Shown here piece after piece: positions 1-44,578 of a stretch of 64,000 nucleotides of DNA. This DNA is from a phage, in NCBI GenBank assembly GCA_021683455.1, contig GCA_021683455.1_3051.1; one strand, written 5' to 3'. Position numbers and translations under genes: made by a program. The notes beneath the pieces are model-generated. The model was not told where the DNA came from, searched no databases, and saw only the letters and a list, made by a program, of their open reading frames with translations. Position 1 is the stretch's first letter; each line of letters begins with the position of its first letter.

Positions 1-70
1 GATAGGATAATATATTATAAAGGGTAGAAACTAAATGATGCCTAGAGAGGCCTGGAAAGGCCTAGATACC

Positions 71-101
71 AAAAAGCCCCAACCTTTTGGTCGGGACTAA
101 G
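71..101 (-). terminator. Minus-strand hairpin plus T-run after the CTS-protein gene; near-identical copy at 626..656
   Basis: Reverse complement reads cccgacc-AAAA-ggttggg followed by gcttttt; the ~31-nt element recurs at 626..656. Confidence 0.55.
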
Positions 102-105
102 AATG

Positions 106-579
106 TTATTTGATTTGTTTAGCAGACCAAATGCGGTCTTTAATAATTTTTTGGATGTCTTCAACATACTCTAGGTCATGAGCATGTGGGTTATCTTTAA
201 AGCTATGAGCACGAGCTAGCTTTTGGCCTTCAGTTTTGATTACTAAAAGCTCTTTAAGGATAGCTTCATATTTGGAGATAATTCCTTTAACGATATTTTT
301 TTCTTGTGCGACTTTAGGATCTGCTTTAGGAGCAGGTTTACCCGAAGCCTTTGCAAAAGCAGCGCCAGTAGCAACTAAACTTTTCCAGGCCATACTAACT
401 GCATTTCCCGTAAATCCTTCCGCTTTCATGTCGCGTGCGAACTGAAATCGCGATTCATCAGAAGCATCTTTGTAAGAATATTTACCCGCTGCAATGGCTG
501 CTTTTGCGACAGCTTGAATTTCGGTGCTAGATGCTTCATTTAACACCGCTTCATTTAAAAATTGAGTATATGATTTCAT
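106..579 (-). CDS. Internal head protein-like protein with N-terminal capsid targeting sequence (157 aa)
   Basis: N-terminus MKSYTQFLNE resembles the T4 IP capsid targeting sequence (IPI here starts MKTYQEF) with an L-x-E prohead-protease site; AGGAAA SD; late promoter upstream. Confidence 0.6.
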   Translation of the reverse strand: MKSYTQFLNEAVLNEASSTEIQAVAKAAIAAGKYSYKDASDESRFQFARDMKAEGFTGNAVSMAWKSLVATGAAFAKASGKPAPKADPKVAQEKNIVKGIISKYEAILKELLVIKTEGQKLARAHSFKDNPHAHDLEYVEDIQKIIKDRIWSAKQIK

Positions 580-615
580 CTTATTTCCTGTTTTAATTCG
601 TGGTTTTAATATACT

Positions 616-623
616 TATTTATA
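616..623 (-). promoter_or_regulatory. T4-type late promoter TATAAATA upstream of the CTS-protein gene
   Basis: Minus strand reads TATAAATA about 35 nt upstream of the start codon at 579. Confidence 0.5.
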
Positions 624-625
624 CT

Positions 626-656
626 AAAAAGCCCCAACCTTTCGGTCGGGGCTAAG
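626..656 (-). terminator. Minus-strand intrinsic terminator closing the tRNA/stable-RNA transcription unit
   Basis: Reverse complement gccccgacc-GAAA-ggttggggc followed by TTTTT. Confidence 0.6.
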
Positions 657-969
657 CCTTGCGGCAACCTTGTCGGGGTTCCACCTGCTAAGGCAAGTGT
701 TTGTACGAAACGCCGGGATTCGAACCCGGTTATTAAGCAGTTGACGCTACTCAATATTTTTAAAAGGCCATATCTCGACCATATCCGAACGTTCCGTCAA
801 AAACGCTACTCGGTTTACGGCAAAGATATTTCCTCGAATCGATAATTCGGTGCGCCGTTTCTGCTGTGATATAAGGGGACATTAACAAAACATAAAGATT
901 TATTAATGCCAGTCCTTAAACAGGGAACATCAGTCCGACGACTTGCCGGTAGCGACCCGGCTTCTTGTC
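657..969 (-). ncRNA. Stable RNA region downstream of tRNA-Arg with a tRNA-like 3' domain; cf. T4 species 1/2 RNAs (rnaC/rnaD)
   Basis: No credible ORF; T-arm-like ccgggTTCGAATcccgg at about 712..728 with a pairing 7-bp acceptor-like stem (cggaacg/cgtttcg); position matches T4 stable RNAs. Confidence 0.4.
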
Positions 970-2756: not shown

Positions 2757-3161
2757 TTAACCTTTATCAACAATAGTATGTGTATGGGCATTTACGATTT
2801 GCCACCAGTCAAAACTATCGCCAAATCGTTTTGATTTATTGTCTTCAATAATTTGGCGTAATTCATCTTCTGTTTCAGCATACGCAATCAAATCATCATA
2901 TCCACCGCAAGGATAGTAATTATCGCCTGCGAACAAAAGAAAATTTACTTTAGATGGGTCTACATAATAATGCTCTTTAGGATATTTAGTTCCTTTCCAA
3001 TCAGTTACTTCAACATAACGATAAGAAAATCCATTTTTACTTTCAACCCAACTCCACGCTTCAAAAGGAGTATTAAAAACTCTATCAGGTATTAAATTAC
3101 CTTCAAAATGAGAAGGATTTGCATAATCCCCAGCATAAACATAATATTCGTTAATATTCAT
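2757..3161 (-). CDS. Hypothetical protein (134 aa)
   Basis: ORF abutting neighbours at both ends; no motif recognised. Confidence 0.65.
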   Translation of the reverse strand: MNINEYYVYAGDYANPSHFEGNLIPDRVFNTPFEAWSWVESKNGFSYRYVEVTDWKGTKYPKEHYYVDPSKVNFLLFAGDNYYPCGGYDDLIAYAETEDELRQIIEDNKSKRFGDSFDWWQIVNAHTHTIVDKG

Positions 3162-3423: not shown

Positions 3424-3708
3424 TTACAAAAGATTTTTAGCAATAATTTTAAGCTGAGCTACTGAAATATGCTTGGCTTTAAACAAAGCAGTTTCTTCAG
3501 CAGGGGAGATAACGATTGTAGCACCATCTTTCTTAGCGGACCATCCATCACCCAGGTAAACAGTACCTTTGACTTCTTCGCCATCAACCAGGCTAATCAT
3601 CGGTTTACCTTCACGTCCTTTGTTTGCTTTAATAACTTCAGAAGTAAGGGTCGCTTCAGTCAAAGTAGAAGCGTTAGTGGTTGAAGTGAATTCTTGATAA
3701 GTTTTCAT
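3424..3708 (-). CDS. ipI: Internal head protein I (IPI), injected with the DNA (94 aa)
   Basis: Starts MKTYQEF (capsid targeting sequence); 94 aa versus T4 IPI 95 aa; sits next to 57B as in T4. Confidence 0.75.
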   Translation of the reverse strand: MKTYQEFTSTTNASTLTEATLTSEVIKANKGREGKPMISLVDGEEVKGTVYLGDGWSAKKDGATIVISPAEETALFKAKHISVAQLKIIAKNLL

Positions 3709-7792: not shown

Positions 7793-9503
7793 TAACCTTA
7801 ATTGGTTTGTTGGTGTTGTTGAAGATAGAATGGACCCATTAAAATTAGGTCGTGTTCGTGTTCGTGTGGTTGGTCTGCATCCACCACAAAGAGCACAAGG
7901 TGATGTAATGGGTATTCCAACTGAAAAATTACCATGGATGTCAGTTATTCAACCTATAACTTCTGCAGCAATGTCAGGAATTGGAGGTTCTGTTACTGGA
8001 CCGGTAGAAGGAACTAGAGTTTATGGTCATTTTTTGGACAAATGGAAAACTAACGGAATTGTCCTTGGCACGTATGGTGGAATAGTTCGCGAAAAACCGA
8101 ATAGACTTGAAGGATTTTCTGACCCAACTGGGCAGTATCCTAGACGTTTAGGAAATGATACTAACGTACTAAACCAAGGCGGAGAAGTAGGATATGATTC
8201 GTCTTCTAACGTTATCCAAGATAGTAACTTAGACACCGCAATAAATCCCGATGATAGACCACTATCAGAGATTCCAACTGATGATAATCCAAATATGTCA
8301 ATGGCTGAAATGCTTCGCCGTGATGAAGGATTAAGACTAAAAGTTTATTGGGATACTGAAGGATATCCGACAATTGGTATTGGTCATCTTATCATGAAGC
8401 AGCCAGTTCGTGATATGGCTCAAATTAATAAAGTTTTATCAAAACAAGTTGGTCGTGAAATTACTGGAAACCCAGGTTCTATTACAATGGAAGAAGCGAC
8501 GACTTTATTTGAGCGTGATTTGGCTGATATGCAACGTGACATTAAATCACATTCTAAAGTAGGACCAGTCTGGCAAGCAGTTAATCGTTCTCGTCAAATG
8601 GCGTTAGAAAATATGGCATTCCAAATGGGCGTTGGTGGCGTAGCTAAATTTAACACAATGTTAACTGCTATGTTAGCAGGAGATTGGGAAAAAGCATATA
8701 AAGCTGGTCGCGATTCATTGTGGTATCAACAAACAAAAGGCCGTGCATCCCGTGTTACCATGATTATTCTTACGGGGAATTTGGAATCATACGGTATTGA
8801 AGTGAAAACTCCAGCTAGGTCTTTGTCAGCAATGGCTGCTACTGTAGCGAAGTCTTCTGACCCGGCTGACCCTCCTATTCCGAATGATTCAAGAATTTTA
8901 TTCAAAGAACCAGTTTCTTCATATAAAGGCGAATATCCTTATGTGCATACAATGGAAACTGAAAGTGGACATATTCAGGAATTTGATGATACCCCTGGGC
9001 AAGAACGATATAGATTAGTTCATCCAACTGGAACTTATGAAGAAGTATCACCGTCAGGGAGAAGAACAAGAAAAACTGTTGATAATTTGTATGATATAAC
9101 AAATGCTGATGGTAATTTTTTGGTAGCTGGCGATAAAAAGACTAACGTCGGTGGATCAGAAATTTATTACAACATGGATAATCGTCTTCACCAAATAGAT
9201 GGAAGCAATACGATATTTGTGCGTGGAGATGAAACTAAGACAGTTGAAGGTAATGGAACTATCCTAGTTAAAGGTAATGTTACTATTGTAGTTGAAGGTA
9301 ATGCTGACATTACAGTTAAAGGAGATGCTACCACTTTAGTTGAAGGAAATCAAACTAATACAGTAAATGGAAATCTTTCTTGGAAAGTTGCTGGGACAGT
9401 TGATTGGGACGTTGGTGGTGATTGGACAGAAAAAATGGCATCTATGAGTTCTATTTCATCTGGTCAATACACAATTGATGGATCGAGGATTGACATTGGC
9501 TAA
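7776..9503 (+). CDS. 5: gp5, baseplate hub subunit and tail lysozyme (cell-puncturing device, 575 aa)
   Basis: N-terminus MEMISNNLNWFVGVVEDRMDPLKLGRVRVRV matches my recall of T4 gp5; internal lysozyme domain; C-terminal VxGxxxxx beta-helix repeats. Confidence 0.95.
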   Translation: MEMISNNLNWFVGVVEDRMDPLKLGRVRVRVVGLHPPQRAQGDVMGIPTEKLPWMSVIQPITSAAMSGIGGSVTGPVEGTRVYGHFLDKWKTNGIVLGTYGGIVREKPNRLEGFSDPTGQYPRRLGNDTNVLNQGGEVGYDSSSNVIQDSNLDTAINPDDRPLSEIPTDDNPNMSMAEMLRRDEGLRLKVYWDTEGYPTIGIGHLIMKQPVRDMAQINKVLSKQVGREITGNPGSITMEEATTLFERDLADMQRDIKSHSKVGPVWQAVNRSRQMALENMAFQMGVGGVAKFNTMLTAMLAGDWEKAYKAGRDSLWYQQTKGRASRVTMIILTGNLESYGIEVKTPARSLSAMAATVAKSSDPADPPIPNDSRILFKEPVSSYKGEYPYVHTMETESGHIQEFDDTPGQERYRLVHPTGTYEEVSPSGRRTRKTVDNLYDITNADGNFLVAGDKKTNVGGSEIYYNMDNRLHQIDGSNTIFVRGDETKTVEGNGTILVKGNVTIVVEGNADITVKGDATTLVEGNQTNTVNGNLSWKVAGTVDWDVGGDWTEKMASMSSISSGQYTIDGSRIDIG

Positions 9504-32641: not shown

Positions 32642-32642
<1 letters not shown>

Positions 32643-32878
32643 TGGAAGGTTTAATTGAAGCTATTAAATCAAACGACCTCGTAGCCGCTCGTAAATTATT
32701 TGCTGAAGCCATGGCTGCAAGAACGACTGATTTAATCAAAGAAGAAAAAATCACTATCGCTCGTAATTTCTTAATTGAGGGTGAAGAACCTGATGACGAG
32801 GATGACGACGAAGATAGCGATGATGATAAAGACGACAAAAAAGACAAAGACTCTGACGAAGACGAGGATGATGAATAA
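32642..32878 (+). CDS. 67: gp67, prohead core protein with acidic C-terminal tail
   Basis: Small protein with a poly-Asp/Glu tail between 20 and 68, as T4 gp67. Confidence 0.85.
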
Positions 32879-33303
32879 TGATTCTAATCCCTGAAACTCA
32901 TGAATTAGTTCTCGAGAATGTCGAAGCACTTATTCCTGAAGCACAGGGTCGCTTTGACGAGTTGTCTTCTGCTTTAAATAAAGACGATATAAATAAAATT
33001 ATCGAGAATATGCTTGATGATGAAACTGATTTAGCGGTTGCATTAGCTTCTATTAATGAAAATATGCCGTTAAATGAATTTATCGTTAAACATGTTTCTG
33101 CCCGTGGTGAAATTACTCGCACTAAAGATCGCAAAACCCGCGAACGTAATGCATTTCAAACTACCGGGTTGTCTAAAGCAAAACGTAGACAAATTGCTCG
33201 TAAAGCTACCAAAACGAAGATTGCCAATCCAGCAGGTCAATCTCGTGCTCAGCGTAAGCGTAAAAAAGCTCTTAAACGCCGTAAAGCATTAGGATTAAGC
33301 TAA
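32878..33303 (+). CDS. 68: gp68, prohead core protein (141 aa)
   Basis: Size identical to T4 gp68; synteny. Confidence 0.85.
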
Positions 33304-33941
33304 TGAATGAACCCCAATTGCTAATTGAAACTTGGGGTCAACCTGGCGAAATTATTGATGGTGTGCCAATGCTTGAATCCCATGATGGGAAAGACTTAGG
33401 TTTAAAACCTGGTTTATACATCGAAGGAATATTCATGCAAGCAGAAGTCGTCAATAGAAATAAACGTCTTTATCCAAAACGTATATTAGAAAAAGCGGTA
33501 AAAGACTATATTAATGAGCAAGTTTTAACTAAACAAGCTCTCGGAGAATTAAATCATCCTCCACGCGCTAATGTTGACCCAATGCAAGCCGCTATCATTA
33601 TAGAAGATATGTGGTGGAAAGGAAATGACGTATACGGACGAGCTCGTGTTATTGAAGGTGACCACGGTCCTGGAGATAAATTAGCAGCTAATATTCGTGC
33701 CGGATGGATTCCAGGAGTTTCTTCTCGTGGATTAGGTTCATTGACTGACACAAATAAAGGTTATCGTATCGTAAACGAAGGATTCAAATTAACTGTAGGT
33801 GTTGATGCAGTATGGGGTCCAAGTGCTCCAGATGCATGGGTAACTCCTAAGGAAATTACCGAATCACAGACGGCGGAAGCCGATACAAGTGCCGATGACG
33901 CCTATATGGCTCTCGCAGAGGCCATGAAAAAAGCGTTATAA
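33303..33941 (+). CDS. 21: gp21, prohead core scaffold protease (212 aa)
   Basis: Size identical to T4 gp21; synteny 68-21-22-23. Confidence 0.9.
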   Translation: MNEPQLLIETWGQPGEIIDGVPMLESHDGKDLGLKPGLYIEGIFMQAEVVNRNKRLYPKRILEKAVKDYINEQVLTKQALGELNHPPRANVDPMQAAIIIEDMWWKGNDVYGRARVIEGDHGPGDKLAANIRAGWIPGVSSRGLGSLTDTNKGYRIVNEGFKLTVGVDAVWGPSAPDAWVTPKEITESQTAEADTSADDAYMALAEAMKKAL

Positions 33942-39324: not shown

Positions 39325-39345
39325 GGGCCGAAGCCCCTTTCGATT
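39325..39345 (-). terminator. Intrinsic terminator after hoc (minus strand)
   Basis: Minus strand GC hairpin (ggggc-ttcg-gccc) followed by TTTTTTC. Confidence 0.55.
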
Positions 39346-40762
39346 ATGGATAAGTATAGATGATACCAGTTTCTAAAGCAGTTTTATGGATGATGTATCC
39401 ATTACGTGATTCTTGAACATCAACTTCTGGATAATCTTTCATCATCTTCTGAAGCGTATAACGATGCAAGTAGTACTTACTATCTGGATCATCAGTTTTC
39501 CAATCTTTACCTTCTTCTGTCATTTTTTGGATTTCATCCATAACCCACCAACCGCACCAGATGTAAGCTGAAGTACGGTGTGGAAGAGGATGAACATAAG
39601 GCAATTCACCTTCTGGTTCCGGAGCAACTTTATCAGTTACCTGAACTTGACCCGTCGTTTTAACTGTTTTGCTATCATAATCAGTAGCAGTAACAGTTGC
39701 CGTAACTTCAATAGTTTGACTTCCAATAGATGAGGTATCAACGGTATATACATTAGTTGACCCTTCTGCAGGAGAAGAATCTTTCTTCCATGAATATTCA
39801 ATTTGCGCTTCTTCTGGAGCACCAGTGACATTAGCGGTAAATGTAGCTGAAGCATCTTGCTGAACGTTAATAGAAGGAGGAGTCAATGTAACCTGTGGAT
39901 TCATTGTCTTCTTATTAACTGTTAATGATACTTCATTAGAAGTAACTTCCTTTTCATTGTAATTTTCTGCTGTTACTTGGGCTACGCATTTAATTCTTTT
40001 TACTCCACTTGTAGTTGGAGTATAGCTAAATGTAGAGTTAGTTTCTCCACCAACTTGAGAATCATCTACATACCATTTATATGTAGCAGACGCTCCATCA
40101 GGTTGAGAAGCTAAGGCAGCAGTAAATTGAACTGGGGTTCCAATTACTCCTGCTGGAGGACTATTAGGAGTTACTGCCAAAGTAGTTGTCTGTGTCTTTT
40201 TATTAACAGTCAGTGATACTTCATTCGAAGTAACGGTTTTTTCATCATAATTTGTCGCGGTTACTTGAGCTACACACTTGATTTTTTTAACTCCGCTGGC
40301 GGCAGGAGTGTAATTAAATGTAGCAGAAGTCGCTTCGTCTACAGGAGAATCGTCAACGTACCATTGATACGTAGCAGATGCACCTGATGGCTGCGAAGCT
40401 AAGGCAGCAGTAAATTTAACAGCTGTTCCGATTACTCCAGCAGCGGGACTATTGGGAGTTACTGCCAATGTAGTTGTCTGAGTTTTATTTTTAACCGTTA
40501 TAGTAGTTGATGCTTGAGCTGTTTCAGGACTACTATCTGCAACTTGGTTTGTTGCAACTACCTTAATAGTCTTTTGACCGGCAGGTCCTTTTAACGTATA
40601 ATCAAAAGTTGCAGACGTTTCTTCCTGCGGTGCATCGTCAACAGTCCAAGCATAGGTAATAGGTCCATCTCCAGTTTGACCACTGGGCGTAGCAGTAAAC
40701 TGCTGAGTCTGATCTATAACTCCAGCAGGTGTTTTAGGAGTTATATCAACTGTAAAAGCCAT
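39344..40762 (-). CDS. hoc: Hoc, highly immunogenic outer capsid protein with an extra tandem Ig-like domain (472 aa)
   Basis: Ig-like repeat modules; two adjacent ~96-aa modules near-identical (NKKTQTTTLAVTPNSP..); T4 Hoc is 376 aa. Confidence 0.85.
   Translation of the reverse strand: MAFTVDITPKTPAGVIDQTQQFTATPSGQTGDGPITYAWTVDDAPQEETSATFDYTLKGPAGQKTIKVVATNQVADSSPETAQASTTITVKNKTQTTTLAVTPNSPAAGVIGTAVKFTAALASQPSGASATYQWYVDDSPVDEATSATFNYTPAASGVKKIKCVAQVTATNYDEKTVTSNEVSLTVNKKTQTTTLAVTPNSPPAGVIGTPVQFTAALASQPDGASATYKWYVDDSQVGGETNSTFSYTPTTSGVKRIKCVAQVTAENYNEKEVTSNEVSLTVNKKTMNPQVTLTPPSINVQQDASATFTANVTGAPEEAQIEYSWKKDSSPAEGSTNVYTVDTSSIGSQTIEVTATVTATDYDSKTVKTTGQVQVTDKVAPEPEGELPYVHPLPHRTSAYIWCGWWVMDEIQKMTEEGKDWKTDDPDSKYYLHRYTLQKMMKDYPEVDVQESRNGYIIHKTALETGIIYTYP
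39910..40485 (-). repeat. Tandem direct duplication (~2 x 288 bp) inside hoc encoding duplicated Ig-like domains
   Basis: Protein residues ~93..188 and ~189..284 are near-identical; the DNA copies are visibly similar. Confidence 0.7.
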
Positions 40763-42121: not shown

Positions 42122-43630
42122 ATGGATATTAAAGTACATTTTCACGACTTCAGTCATGTACGCATCGATTGTGAAGAGAGCACGTTCCACGAATTAAGAG
42201 ATTTCTTTTCGTTTGAGGCCGATGGATATAGATTTAACCCTCGCTTCAGATATGGCAACTGGGATGGACGAATCCGTCTTTTAGATTATAATCGCCTTCT
42301 TCCATTCGGCTTAGTCGGGCAAATTAAAAAGTTCTGTGATAACTTTGGCTATAAAGCCTGGATTGACCCACAAATTAACGAAAAAGAAGAATTATCAAGA
42401 AAAGATTTTGATGAATGGCTTTCTAAATTAGAAATCTATTCAGGAAATAAAAGAATTGAACCACACTGGTATCAAAAAGATGCAGTGTTCGAAGGATTAG
42501 TTAATCGTCGTAGAATTCTTAATCTTCCAACATCTGCAGGTAAATCTTTAATTCAGGCTCTGCTTGCGCGATATTATTTGGAAAATTATGAAGGTAAAAT
42601 TCTTATCATTGTTCCAACAACTGCTCTAACAACTCAGATGGCTGATGATTTCGTTGACTATCGTTTATTCAGTCATGCAATGATAAAGAAAATCGGTGGT
42701 GGAGCATCAAAAGATGATAAATATAAAAATGATGCACCAGTCGTTGTTGGTACATGGCAAACTGTAGTAAAACAACCAAAAGAATGGTTCTCACAGTTTG
42801 GAATGATGATGAATGATGAATGTCATCTTGCTACAGGAAAAAGTATTTCATCTATCATATCAGGTTTAAATAACTGTATGTTCAAATTTGGTCTATCTGG
42901 TTCATTACGTGATGGCAAAGCCAATATCATGCAGTATGTTGGAATGTTTGGCGAAATATTTAAGCCAGTAACGACTTCTAAGTTAATGGAAGATGGACAA
43001 GTAACTGAGCTAAAAATTAATAGTATTTTTCTTCGTTATCCTGATGAGTTCACTACTAAATTAAAGGGAAAAACTTACCAAGAAGAAATAAAAATTATTA
43101 CGGGGCTTAGTAAAAGAAATAAATGGATCGCTAAATTAGCTATTAAGCTTGCGCAAAAAGATGAAAACGCTTTTGTCATGTTTAAACATGTATCGCACGG
43201 TAAAGCTATTTTCGATTTAATTAAAAATGAATACGATAAAGTTTATTACGTATCAGGGGAAGTTGATACCGAAACCCGCAATATAATGAAAACCTTAGCT
43301 GAAAATGGTAAAGGAATAATTATAGTAGCTAGTTATGGTGTATTTTCTACTGGTATTTCAGTTAAAAATCTGCATCACGTTGTTTTAGCGCACGGTGTTA
43401 AATCAAAAATCATTGTATTACAAACAATCGGTCGTGTATTACGTAAGCATGGTTCTAAGACAATAGCAACTGTCTGGGACCTCATAGATGACGCGGGCGT
43501 AGTTTCTAAATCAAAAACATCTTCTAAAAAATACTCGCATTTAAACTATCTTTTAAAACATGGACTTGATCGTATTCAGCGTTATGCTGATGAAAAGTTT
43601 AATTATGTGATGAAAGAGGTTAAACTTTGA
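42122..43630 (+). CDS. uvsW: UvsW, DNA/RNA helicase (branch migration, 502 aa)
   Basis: Walker A TSAGKSL and DECH box (MNDECH); size as T4 UvsW. Confidence 0.9.
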   Translation: MDIKVHFHDFSHVRIDCEESTFHELRDFFSFEADGYRFNPRFRYGNWDGRIRLLDYNRLLPFGLVGQIKKFCDNFGYKAWIDPQINEKEELSRKDFDEWLSKLEIYSGNKRIEPHWYQKDAVFEGLVNRRRILNLPTSAGKSLIQALLARYYLENYEGKILIIVPTTALTTQMADDFVDYRLFSHAMIKKIGGGASKDDKYKNDAPVVVGTWQTVVKQPKEWFSQFGMMMNDECHLATGKSISSIISGLNNCMFKFGLSGSLRDGKANIMQYVGMFGEIFKPVTTSKLMEDGQVTELKINSIFLRYPDEFTTKLKGKTYQEEIKIITGLSKRNKWIAKLAIKLAQKDENAFVMFKHVSHGKAIFDLIKNEYDKVYYVSGEVDTETRNIMKTLAENGKGIIIVASYGVFSTGISVKNLHHVVLAHGVKSKIIVLQTIGRVLRKHGSKTIATVWDLIDDAGVVSKSKTSSKKYSHLNYLLKHGLDRIQRYADEKFNYVMKEVKL

Positions 43631-44319
43631 ATTATAAATTAATATATGATAATTTAATTAATAGAGCCCAGAATCGGGCTCGCCTTAATGGATACACTGA
43701 AACACATCATATAATTCCTAGATGTATGGGTGGTACAAATGATAAGTGTAATTTAGTAGAACTAACGGCTGAAGAACATTTTATAGCCCATAAACTTTTA
43801 GCTAAAATTCATCCAAACCATTACGGTATAATTAAAGCTGTTATATGTATGGGGATGAATTCAAATACTCATGAAAGACATGTTAATAAATCTTACGCAT
43901 GGGAACGTCGTAAAATGGCAGAACTTCAATCCGGCGAAGGTAATCCATTTTACGGAAAACACCATACGGAAGAACATAAACAATATATGTCAAAACTCAT
44001 GAAAAGTCGTCCAATTACATGGGGAAATAAAATTAGTAAAACTAAAAGAATGAACCCAACGAAATGGACTGAAGAAGCTAAAAGATTACATTCAATCAAT
44101 CAATCGGGTAAAAATAACGGCATGTATGGAAGGAAACATTCTGCTAAATCTATTCAGAAAATTAAAGATAACATGCCAGATAATTCAGGAGCTAATAACC
44201 CAGCTGCTAAACCTATAGAAGTAAATGGTGTTAAATATAAATGTATGAAAGATGCTTCTAAAGCTACTGGATTATCAATGTACAAACTAAGAATACTTAG
44301 AAAAACAGTTAATTTATAA
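43627..44319 (+). mobile_element. Free-standing HNH homing endonuclease with NUMOD-like repeats, inserted after uvsW (230 aa)
   Basis: HNH motif ETHHIIPRCMGGTNDKCNLVELTAEEH; repeats NPFYGKHHTEEHK and NGMYGRKHSAKS; TTG start with AAGAGG SD overlapping the uvsW stop. Confidence 0.75.
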
Positions 44320-44332
44320 GGGCTTCGGCCCT

Positions 44333-44578
44333 TTGGAGAAAAAGATGTTACTAGAATTTAAACAATTTCTTTATGAAGCTTCTATTGATGAATTTATGGG
44401 TAAAATTGCCTCTTGTCAAACATTAGAAGGTTTAGAAGAACTTGAAGCTTATTATAAGAAAAGAGTCAAAGAAACTGAATTAAAAGATACTGATGACATC
44501 TCTGTGAGAGATGCTTTGGCAGGAAAAAGAGCTGAATTAGAAGATTCAGACGATGATGAAGTAGAAGAAAGCTTTTAA
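44333..44578 (+). CDS. uvsW.1: UvsW.1-like small acidic protein (81 aa)
   Basis: Small acidic ORF downstream of uvsW; position matches T4 uvsW.1. Confidence 0.55.
   Translation: MEKKMLLEFKQFLYEASIDEFMGKIASCQTLEGLEELEAYYKKRVKETELKDTDDISVRDALAGKRAELEDSDDDEVEESF

Follow-up and report, generated by a model that had tools for sequence, protein, structure and literature searches.

The ORF157 cassette

We analysed a 64,000-nucleotide stretch of phage DNA (hereafter the window; contig GCA_021683455.1_3051.1 of GenBank assembly GCA_021683455.1) and describe here ORF157, a minus-strand gene near its beginning whose open reading frame (ORF) and flanks suggest a new family of the internal proteins (IPs) of T4-type phages. 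IPs are defined by their leader, processing, packaging and injection and not by mutual homology. The window comes from a Tequatrovirus, its first 1.5 kb matching Tequatrovirus genomes of Escherichia, Shigella and Yersinia phages, hundreds in all, at 95-97% identity, and the cassette is situated between the tRNA/rnaC operon and e.8. An earlier reading of the letters without database searches (the sequence-only reading) had proposed a 157-residue ORF starting MKSYTQFLNE, near-identical elements of about 31 nt (hairpin plus T-run) on both of its flanks, and a late promoter of its own. All three were confirmed at the positions given in Table 1. The encoded protein begins MKSYTQFLNEAVLNEASS.

The two 31-nt copies are identical at 29 of 31 positions, and a terminator scan placed both on the minus strand, each with a 10-bp stem (6-7 G-C pairs), a 4-nt loop (GAAA or AAAA) and a T-run. 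With up to three mismatches allowed, the 64 kb has no further match to the 31-mer, and 100 shuffles yielded none. The upstream copy is the native terminator that ends the tRNA/rnaD/rnaC operon and forms the rnaC-proximal arm of the direct repeat; the downstream copy is the terminator of ORF157 and forms the distal arm.

An exact TATAAATA, a predicted late promoter judging from its letters, lies 36 nt upstream of the ORF157 ATG. This octamer occurs 11 times on the minus strand of the window, and the chance of finding one inside the 46-nt gap is about 0.8%. The same position is annotated as a predicted late promoter in phage fPS-90, and Klebsiella phage RCIP0032 carries an exact TATAAATA at equal spacing in the layout hairpin-TTTTTAG-TATAAATA; the corresponding position in Mosigvirus PhAPEC2 has only the near-match AATAAATA. 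Late transcription of this predicted kind would be compatible with prohead assembly.

Table 1 Features of the ORF157 locus and related genes in the window.
Feature	Positions	Strand	Basis and remarks
Left flank, common with the T4 empty site, leading to e.8 (beyond the window)	1-70		Alignment to T4
Downstream terminator copy	71-101	-	Hairpin 98-75, then T-run; -17 kcal/mol, z -3.1
555-bp indel unit (one repeat copy, ORF and promoter), missing from T4, T2 and T6	71-625		Register arbitrary within the 31-bp repeat
ORF157 coding sequence, phrog_2280	106-579	-	ORF call; 157 residues, ATG start, stop codon included
C-terminal domain, codons 88-157	109-318	-	Model and alignment; predicted helical hairpin (model residues 88-154)
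Linker, codons 76-87, AKASGKPAPKAD	319-354	-	Model and alignment; predicted disordered, Pro/Ala/Lys-rich (PAPK-type)
N-terminal domain, codons 16-75	355-534	-	Predicted three helices (model residues 18-75), pLDDT 80-91; motifs AGKYSY, ESRFxF, GF, AWKS
Leader, codons 1-15, MKSYTQFLNE-AVLNE	535-579	-	Capsid-targeting-like, two L-N-E sites; modelled as disordered, pLDDT <50
Ribosome-binding site AGGAAA	584-589	-	Sequence reading; 4 nt before ATG
Late promoter, T4-type, TATAAATA	616-623	-	Exact match; abuts the terminator T-run (GGGGCTTTTTAGTATAAATA)
Upstream terminator copy	626-656	-	Hairpin 653-630, then T-run; -24.9 kcal/mol, z -4.4
rnaC/rnaD homologues (T4 stable RNAs, species 1 and 2), between tRNA-Arg and the upstream terminator	657-969	-	Collinear with T4, 170/175
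ipI orthologue	3424-3708	-	Pfam IPI_T4, E 1.3e-51
gp21 prohead protease	33303-33941		Peptidase_S77, E 1.5e-111

Leader, cleavage motif and virion evidence

The start of ORF157 had been likened to the T4 capsid-targeting sequence with an L-x-E protease site, and the comparison bears this out. T4 IPII and IPIII start MKTYQEFIAE and IPI starts MKTFKEFTST; against IPII and IPIII, five of ten leader positions of ORF157 are identical (M1, K2, Y4, F7 and E10), two are conservative (S/T3 and L/I8), and two L-N-E sites are present. A strict start of the type M-K-x-Y-x-E/Q-F was found in the 64 kb only in ORF157 and in the ipI orthologue. Across its family (phrog_2280) the tag follows the pattern M-K-x-Y/F-x-E/Q-F-L-x-E, and in an alignment all eight members have E15 with A/Q-S directly after it. 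Shorter alleles have one F-L-x-E↓A/Q-S site (the arrow marks the cut), and in the window allele a five-residue duplication has produced FLNE-AVLNE. Distant homologues, down to a profile E-value of 4e-4, keep M-x-x-F/Y-x-E/D/Q/S-F-L/V-x-E/D and are weakly similar elsewhere; the leader with L-x-E↓A is kept in homologues at about 20-30% identity or with a replaced C-terminal domain.

The protease that would act on such a site, gp21, is encoded in the window, and the gp23 processing site of this phage, FLTE↓AE, is much like FLNE↓AV and VLNE↓AS of ORF157. The candidate cut sites are LNE10↓A and LNE15↓A, with predicted new N-termini AVLNEASSTEIQAVAK (after E10) and ASSTEIQAVAK (after E15).

The window also encodes UvsW.1 (Pfam PF11637, 44345-44578, plus strand), not a known head protein, which starts MLLEFKQFLYE↓AS. 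The loose leader motif by itself is therefore not diagnostic, and the likeness in UvsW.1 is probably a coincidence. A provisional assignment of 44345-44578 as gp67 was rejected on the Pfam match; gp67 proper lies at 32642-32878.

Yersinia phage fD1 has, at the same position, an ORF157 orthologue, g140, that is 97% identical. In Skurnik et al. 2021 (PMC8309999, Table S3), g140 is classed as "PPAP" from LC-MS/MS of purified particles, with at least two peptides. The same table classes the ipI orthologue g146 as PPAP and does not so class the neighbours g138 and g139 (e.8). The earlier suggestion that the product is probably packaged has gained indirect support in these respects: a conserved tag and cleavage motif, gp21 in the same window, and an orthologue on a (permissive) list of virion proteins.

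Variation at the locus

Window positions 1-70 align with T4 (L002 7761-7830) at 67 of 70 positions, and 626-800 with T4 7831-8005 at 170 of 175. T4 keeps a single terminator copy (L002 7831-7861), and the gap is exactly 555 bp, bounded by the 31-bp repeat. The site is likewise empty in T2 and T6, with one terminator copy and the same flanks. Many phages carry the ORF157 cassette alone; their records span about 1365 bp, compared with 812 bp where the site is empty. In CT01 and Pu-Krd-SF2 its place is taken by an ORF of 162 or 188 residues that begins MKTYAEFLTE↓AAKL and has a hairpin of its own, AAAAAGCCCTATCATTTAGATAGGG, and in fPS-90, ZN18 and Mosigvirus PhAPEC2 both ORFs stand in tandem with a terminator after each.

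This second tag-bearing ORF (ORF187; 162-188 residues) was found in 165 records, and its leader is closer still to those of the T4 IPs. It gives a full-length match to phrog_2280 (E 2e-53), and Klebsiella and metagenomic homologues match this family too. Comparing ORF157 with ORF187 gave weak results, in which hhalign put the probability at 10-18% and BLASTP linked the two transitively, through P0018 (E 2.6e-5); on these sequence comparisons we tentatively take ORF187 for a distant paralogue.

Mosigvirus has its own hairpin variant, which is likewise duplicated on both sides of ORF157, and a Klebsiella T4-like phage has a homologue at the same site after the tRNAs, with a different downstream hairpin. 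The 31-mer of the window was found at 516 places in 420 phage records, once or twice per record among the records listed. Its confinement to one locus in one or two copies points to a local duplication and not to a dispersed mobile element.

Between fPS-90 and PhAPEC2 the nucleotide identity is 88-100% in the rnaC/rnaD region, 88% in e.8, 95% in ORF187 and 76% in ORF157 as a whole (56-65% in its N-terminal half, 81-86% in its C-terminal half). The difference between ORF187 and ORF157 across the two genera suggests cassette-wise exchange, and the low identity of the N-terminal half within a conserved locus marks the N-domain as a local divergence hot spot.

The sequence-only reading had seen a swappable module of the kind known from T-even IP loci. 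The empty site in T4, T2 and T6 and the other tag-bearing ORF, or the tandem, in further phages uphold the swapping; the site itself is not among the two IP loci that have been described. Those two are said, in the part of the 1994 work of Repoila and colleagues that later papers relay, to be polymorphic, with ORFs flanked by conserved regulatory sequences. On comparative sequence grounds, the present locus is a putative third one, downstream of rnaC and unannotated. We propose that its cassettes are lost by homologous recombination between the bracketing terminator copies, and exchange probably takes the same route. As to history, we infer an old slot for leader-bearing ORFs after the tRNA-operon terminator, in which a terminator-promoter-ORF unit was duplicated in tandem. 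Later losses by recombination would have produced the T4 state when they fell between terminator copies and the window state when they fell at the shared AAAAAGCCC, and cassettes would also have been exchanged between lineages.

Protein family, predicted structure and evolution

ORF157 matches phrog_2280 (PHROGs, unknown function) over residues 1-157 with a profile E-value of 4.2e-60. With tblastn it was found in 512 phage records, and in 468 of these the match covers 80% or more of its length; when 1.8 billion cluster representatives were searched with a profile, only 13 clusters came back, whose named sources are T4-like phages or phage-like contigs. Nearly all records seen annotate it as "hypothetical". 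The curated record of RB18, from the MH55 accession series to which the T6 record naming Ip5 and Ip6 also belongs, calls it 'RB32ORF132c, hypothetical'; one UniRef entry, a Klebsiella homologue, is labelled 'Internal head protein'. Locus-tag searches for an earlier naming of ORF157 in the literature gave nothing relevant.

Sequence likeness to the T4 proteins ends with the leader. The alignment with IPI, IPII and IPIII that had been suggested as a check was run, and BLASTP returned nothing past the leader, which excludes the mature part as a detectable homologue. ORF157 also has no Pfam match above noise, that to IPI_T4 (PF11634), the fold of the GmrSD inhibitor, included, while the ipI gene of the window gives 1.3e-51. 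The predicted mature protein of 142 residues has an isoelectric point of 9.52, and those of T4 IPI*, IPII* and IPIII* are 9.02-9.65.

An AlphaFold model built on a shallow family alignment reached a mean predicted local distance difference test score (pLDDT) of 74, which is moderate, and suggests two helical domains joined by a disordered linker (Table 1). The two domains differ in their evolution. In E. coli phages, identity is 86-94% for the C-domain and falls to 65-73% for the N-domain, which evolves at about nine times the rate of the C-domain and shows the lowest conservation anywhere in the locus. Klebsiella and Yersinia homologues keep the N-domain at about 65% identity, and their C-domain has been swapped for an unrelated one (16-19%).

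ORF157 is a real gene under purifying selection, with a ratio of nonsynonymous to synonymous substitution (dN/dS) of about 0.08 overall against the Mosigvirus orthologue. A foreign origin was considered and rejected, since its GC content of 38.8% is not anomalous when the window has 35.9% and ipI 38.9%. Truncated or frameshifted versions (97-111 residues) occur in isolates T4_ev240, SfPhi01 and vB_EcoM-G28, which is consistent with a gene that is dispensable under laboratory propagation. A further protein, P0013 (94 residues, on a 2.9-kb contig), joins a Trna.3-like N-terminal part (compare window 2757-3161) in frame with the last ~30 residues of ORF157, implying a natural deletion of the entire tRNA/segB/rnaC block.

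Neighbouring genes and further observations

On the minus strand the genes follow one another as in T4: gene 2, gene 3, gene 1, 57A, 57B and ipI, then trna.4, trna.3, trna.2, the tRNA genes with segB, the rnaD/rnaC homologues and the ORF157 cassette. The rnaC/rnaD region gave no match to an Rfam family, despite its 97% identity to T4. In the annotation of phage ESh25 a probably spurious coding sequence covers the rnaC/rnaD stretch and the terminator (equivalent to window 600-845, plus strand). The tRNA cluster (970-2369) is unlike that of T4 in that genes for Asn, Tyr and Met (CAT) are present and those for Ile and Pro are absent; segB, a GIY-YIG homing endonuclease gene (1475-2125), lies between tRNA-Ser and tRNA-Gly, whereas in T4 it adjoins tRNA-Arg.

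Relatives of the window phage, namely ESh25 (L001 682-740) and fD1, have neither ipII nor ipIII in the interval from denV to e. Across denV from that interval, fD1 carries g129 (L007 786-1259), with 157 residues, the start MKTYQEFITE↓AA and membership of phrog_3155, 'internal virion protein'. Relatives that are without ipII and ipIII and have other leader-bearing genes suggest an IP repertoire in this lineage substantially different from that of T4.

Elsewhere in the window, a 230-residue ORF just upstream of uvsW.1 (43627-44319, plus strand) shows by eye an HNH-type motif (HHIIPRCMGG...EEH) and is likely a free-standing homing endonuclease gene, without a T4 counterpart at that position. A Hoc-like ORF of 472 residues (39344-40762, minus strand) has repeated Ig-like segments, with the unit TTLAVTPNSP...KCVAQVTA present twice; T4 Hoc is about 376 residues long, so that the ORF of the window seems to have extra repeats.

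Interpretation and alternatives

We favour, at a probability of roughly 0.7, the reading that ORF157 encodes a new family of T4-type internal proteins at a third IP locus and that, by analogy, these proteins may neutralise host defences. The product is quite probably a packaged internal protein. An anti-defence role, argued from the T4 IPs, is a reasonable proposition at slightly under even odds, and a target specifically among the GmrSD-type type IV restriction enzymes, on the same analogy, is rather unlikely. The family may be among the 'more than 30 IP variants' of Repoila 1994 and Comeau 2007.

In the mechanism that we propose, ORF157 would be transcribed late from its own TATAAATA promoter, insulated from the tRNA operon by that operon's terminator. 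The capsid-targeting leader would carry the precursor into the assembling prohead core, where gp21 would cut it at L-N-E↓A, most likely after E15. This would release a basic protein of about 15.5 kDa with a three-helix N-domain, a Pro/Ala/Lys linker and a helical-hairpin C-domain. Packaging and cleavage are postulated steps, as is the ejection of the mature protein into the cell with the DNA, where, by analogy with T4 Ip1, Ip2 and Ip3, it may neutralise one specific host defence at entry.

Several observations weigh against this reading. The allele of the window has Q and not E at leader position 6. Cleavage and injection of the product are predictions. The fD1 particle list is permissive, with 113 proteins that include rIIB and the chaperone 57A (PMC8309999), so that the detection of g140 is supportive and not decisive. 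Pfam, BLASTP, Foldseek, PDB and BFVD searches revealed no characterised protein that is alike in sequence or fold: the best Foldseek hit against the PDB had an E-value of 2.2, a sequence-profile search of the PDB was empty, and the BFVD viral structure library returned family members only. The C-domain, with a dN of 0.031 and 95-99% identity in 332 records, shows no obvious arms-race pattern. Finally, Silas et al. 2025 (PMC12373910) tested ip4-10 against GmrSD variants and found no reproducible target for them, so the tag does not guarantee a known target; phrog_2280 may itself be among ip4-10, the sequences of which are not in the supplements of that paper.

The alternative that fares best, though an unlikely one, is that the protein is packaged and has a structural or physico-chemical role, as a basic helical part of the head core that condenses, neutralises or ejects DNA and has no host target. 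The basic isoelectric point of 9.5 fits such a role, as do the simple helical architecture and lysine-rich linker of the model, the purifying selection on the C-domain and the lack of likeness to known inhibitors in the PDB, Foldseek and BFVD searches. A head component of this kind is harder to reconcile with a gene that is missing from T2, T4 and T6 and broken in some isolates, or with an N-domain that diverges inside a locus otherwise 88-100% identical; moreover, the three IPs of T4, formerly thought inert, all now have specific targets. With the C-domain strongly constrained and a host target still conjectural, this explanation keeps some probability.

Considerably less probable is that the two terminator copies are ordinary independent stops that take no part in the gain or loss of genes, and that the cassette look is incidental. 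Each copy does have its own job, at the end of the tRNA operon or of ORF157; the 31-mer is confined to this locus; and the Klebsiella homologue manages with a different downstream hairpin. Against this, the copies are identical at 29-31 of 31 positions, including the non-stem bases AAAAA...CTAAG, and the empty site of T4, T2 and T6 is the exact product expected from recombination between them. The Mosigvirus variant is duplicated on both sides of ORF157, and the 95% identity of ORF187 beside 76% for ORF157 between genera points to cassette-wise exchange. The near-perfect identity of the copies and the exact empty site disfavour independent stops. Least probable of all is a late protein that is not packaged and acts in the infected cell, for instance in assembly or lysis timing, with a coincidental or vestigial leader: packaging of the ORF157 product is a prediction, the fD1 list includes clearly non-virion proteins and UvsW.1 has a similar start without known IP status, but the leader is deeply conserved (with L-x-E↓A down to ~20-30% identity and past C-domain swaps), the neighbouring alternative cassette has a leader even closer to T4 IPs, the strict start is found in the window only in ORF157 and ipI, and the promoter timing fits prohead assembly.

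A more far-reaching version of the internal-protein reading, which we consider doubtful, would make phrog_2280 a new class of modular injected effectors at a third IP locus, with a defence target other than the GmrSD variants of Ip1-3. The three-helix N-domain, conserved yet variable at its surface, would recognise a host defence protein, and the C-domain would be a swappable part attached through the flexible linker. If so, the laboratory T-evens T2, T4 and T6 would owe to the absence of the family part of what sets their host range apart from that of the RB-type and wild Tequatrovirus and Mosigvirus phages used in therapy.

Significance

Injected internal proteins act ahead of any phage gene expression. 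Since the three T4 IPs disarm specific type IV restriction enzymes, new leader-bearing families are short-listed as anti-defence candidates that come with a delivery route. Of the T4-like phages that have been sequenced, ~500 have the present family, and many of these are isolates for therapy or biocontrol; its absence from T2, T4 and T6, together with the 'hypothetical' labels, is probably why it went unstudied. To a T4 specialist the finding will be unsurprising in principle; its value lies in a concrete, widespread and unstudied candidate for an injected effector. The empty site of T4, T2 and T6, with its identical flanks, is a ready knock-in position for gain-of-function tests, and the locus offers a clean instance, from nature, of cassettes that appear to be lost and exchanged when duplicated terminators recombine.

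Comparison with known systems

Other gp21 substrates (gp23, gp24, gp67, gp68, gp22 and Alt) have the same L/I-x-E↓ cleavage logic as the predicted sites of ORF157. They are essential or core proteins with a fixed place in the head gene cluster, in contrast to ORF157, which is accessory and lies outside that cluster.

The PeSL cassettes of the RB49/phi1 type (Arbiol et al. 2010, Comeau et al. 2014) are alike in that a terminator-promoter element stands beside a small non-essential ORF and in that indel end points fall in the repeated element, as with the 555-bp gap against T4 that is bounded by the 31-bp repeat. The PeSL promoter is sigma-70-like and early, whereas that of ORF157 is the late TATAAATA, and a scan of the minus strand found no good sigma-70 site beside the ORF157 stem-loop. 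PeSL copies are many and dispersed in hyperplastic regions, in contrast to two copies in 64 kb for the ORF157 repeat, and mini-circles would be conjectural for the ORF157 locus. Membership of the PeSL class was rejected on account of the late promoter and the local nature of the repeat.

T4 IPI-III share with ORF157 a capsid-targeting leader of about ten residues ending in L/I-x-E, a small basic mature protein (predicted for ORF157), a late promoter, non-essentiality, a variable locus by the tRNA/e region and a presence that varies among close relatives. They differ in their sites, 57B/trna.4 or denV/e against rnaC/e.8 for ORF157, and in the mature part, which in ORF157 is without detectable sequence or fold similarity to them and is predicted to have two helical domains and a linker. 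Ip1, Ip2 and Ip3 each inhibit a different GmrSD variant (Silas et al. 2025, PMC12373910), whereas a function of ORF157 can be suggested by analogy with them.

The T-even ip loci (Ip4-Ip10; Ip5 and Ip6 of T6; fD1 g129) resemble the ORF157 locus in offering alternative leader-bearing ORFs at one site, with conserved regulatory sequences between them that are usable for recombination. The flanks described for those loci are based on early promoters and weak AT-rich stem-loops; at ORF157 they consist instead of a strong GC-rich terminator and a predicted late promoter.

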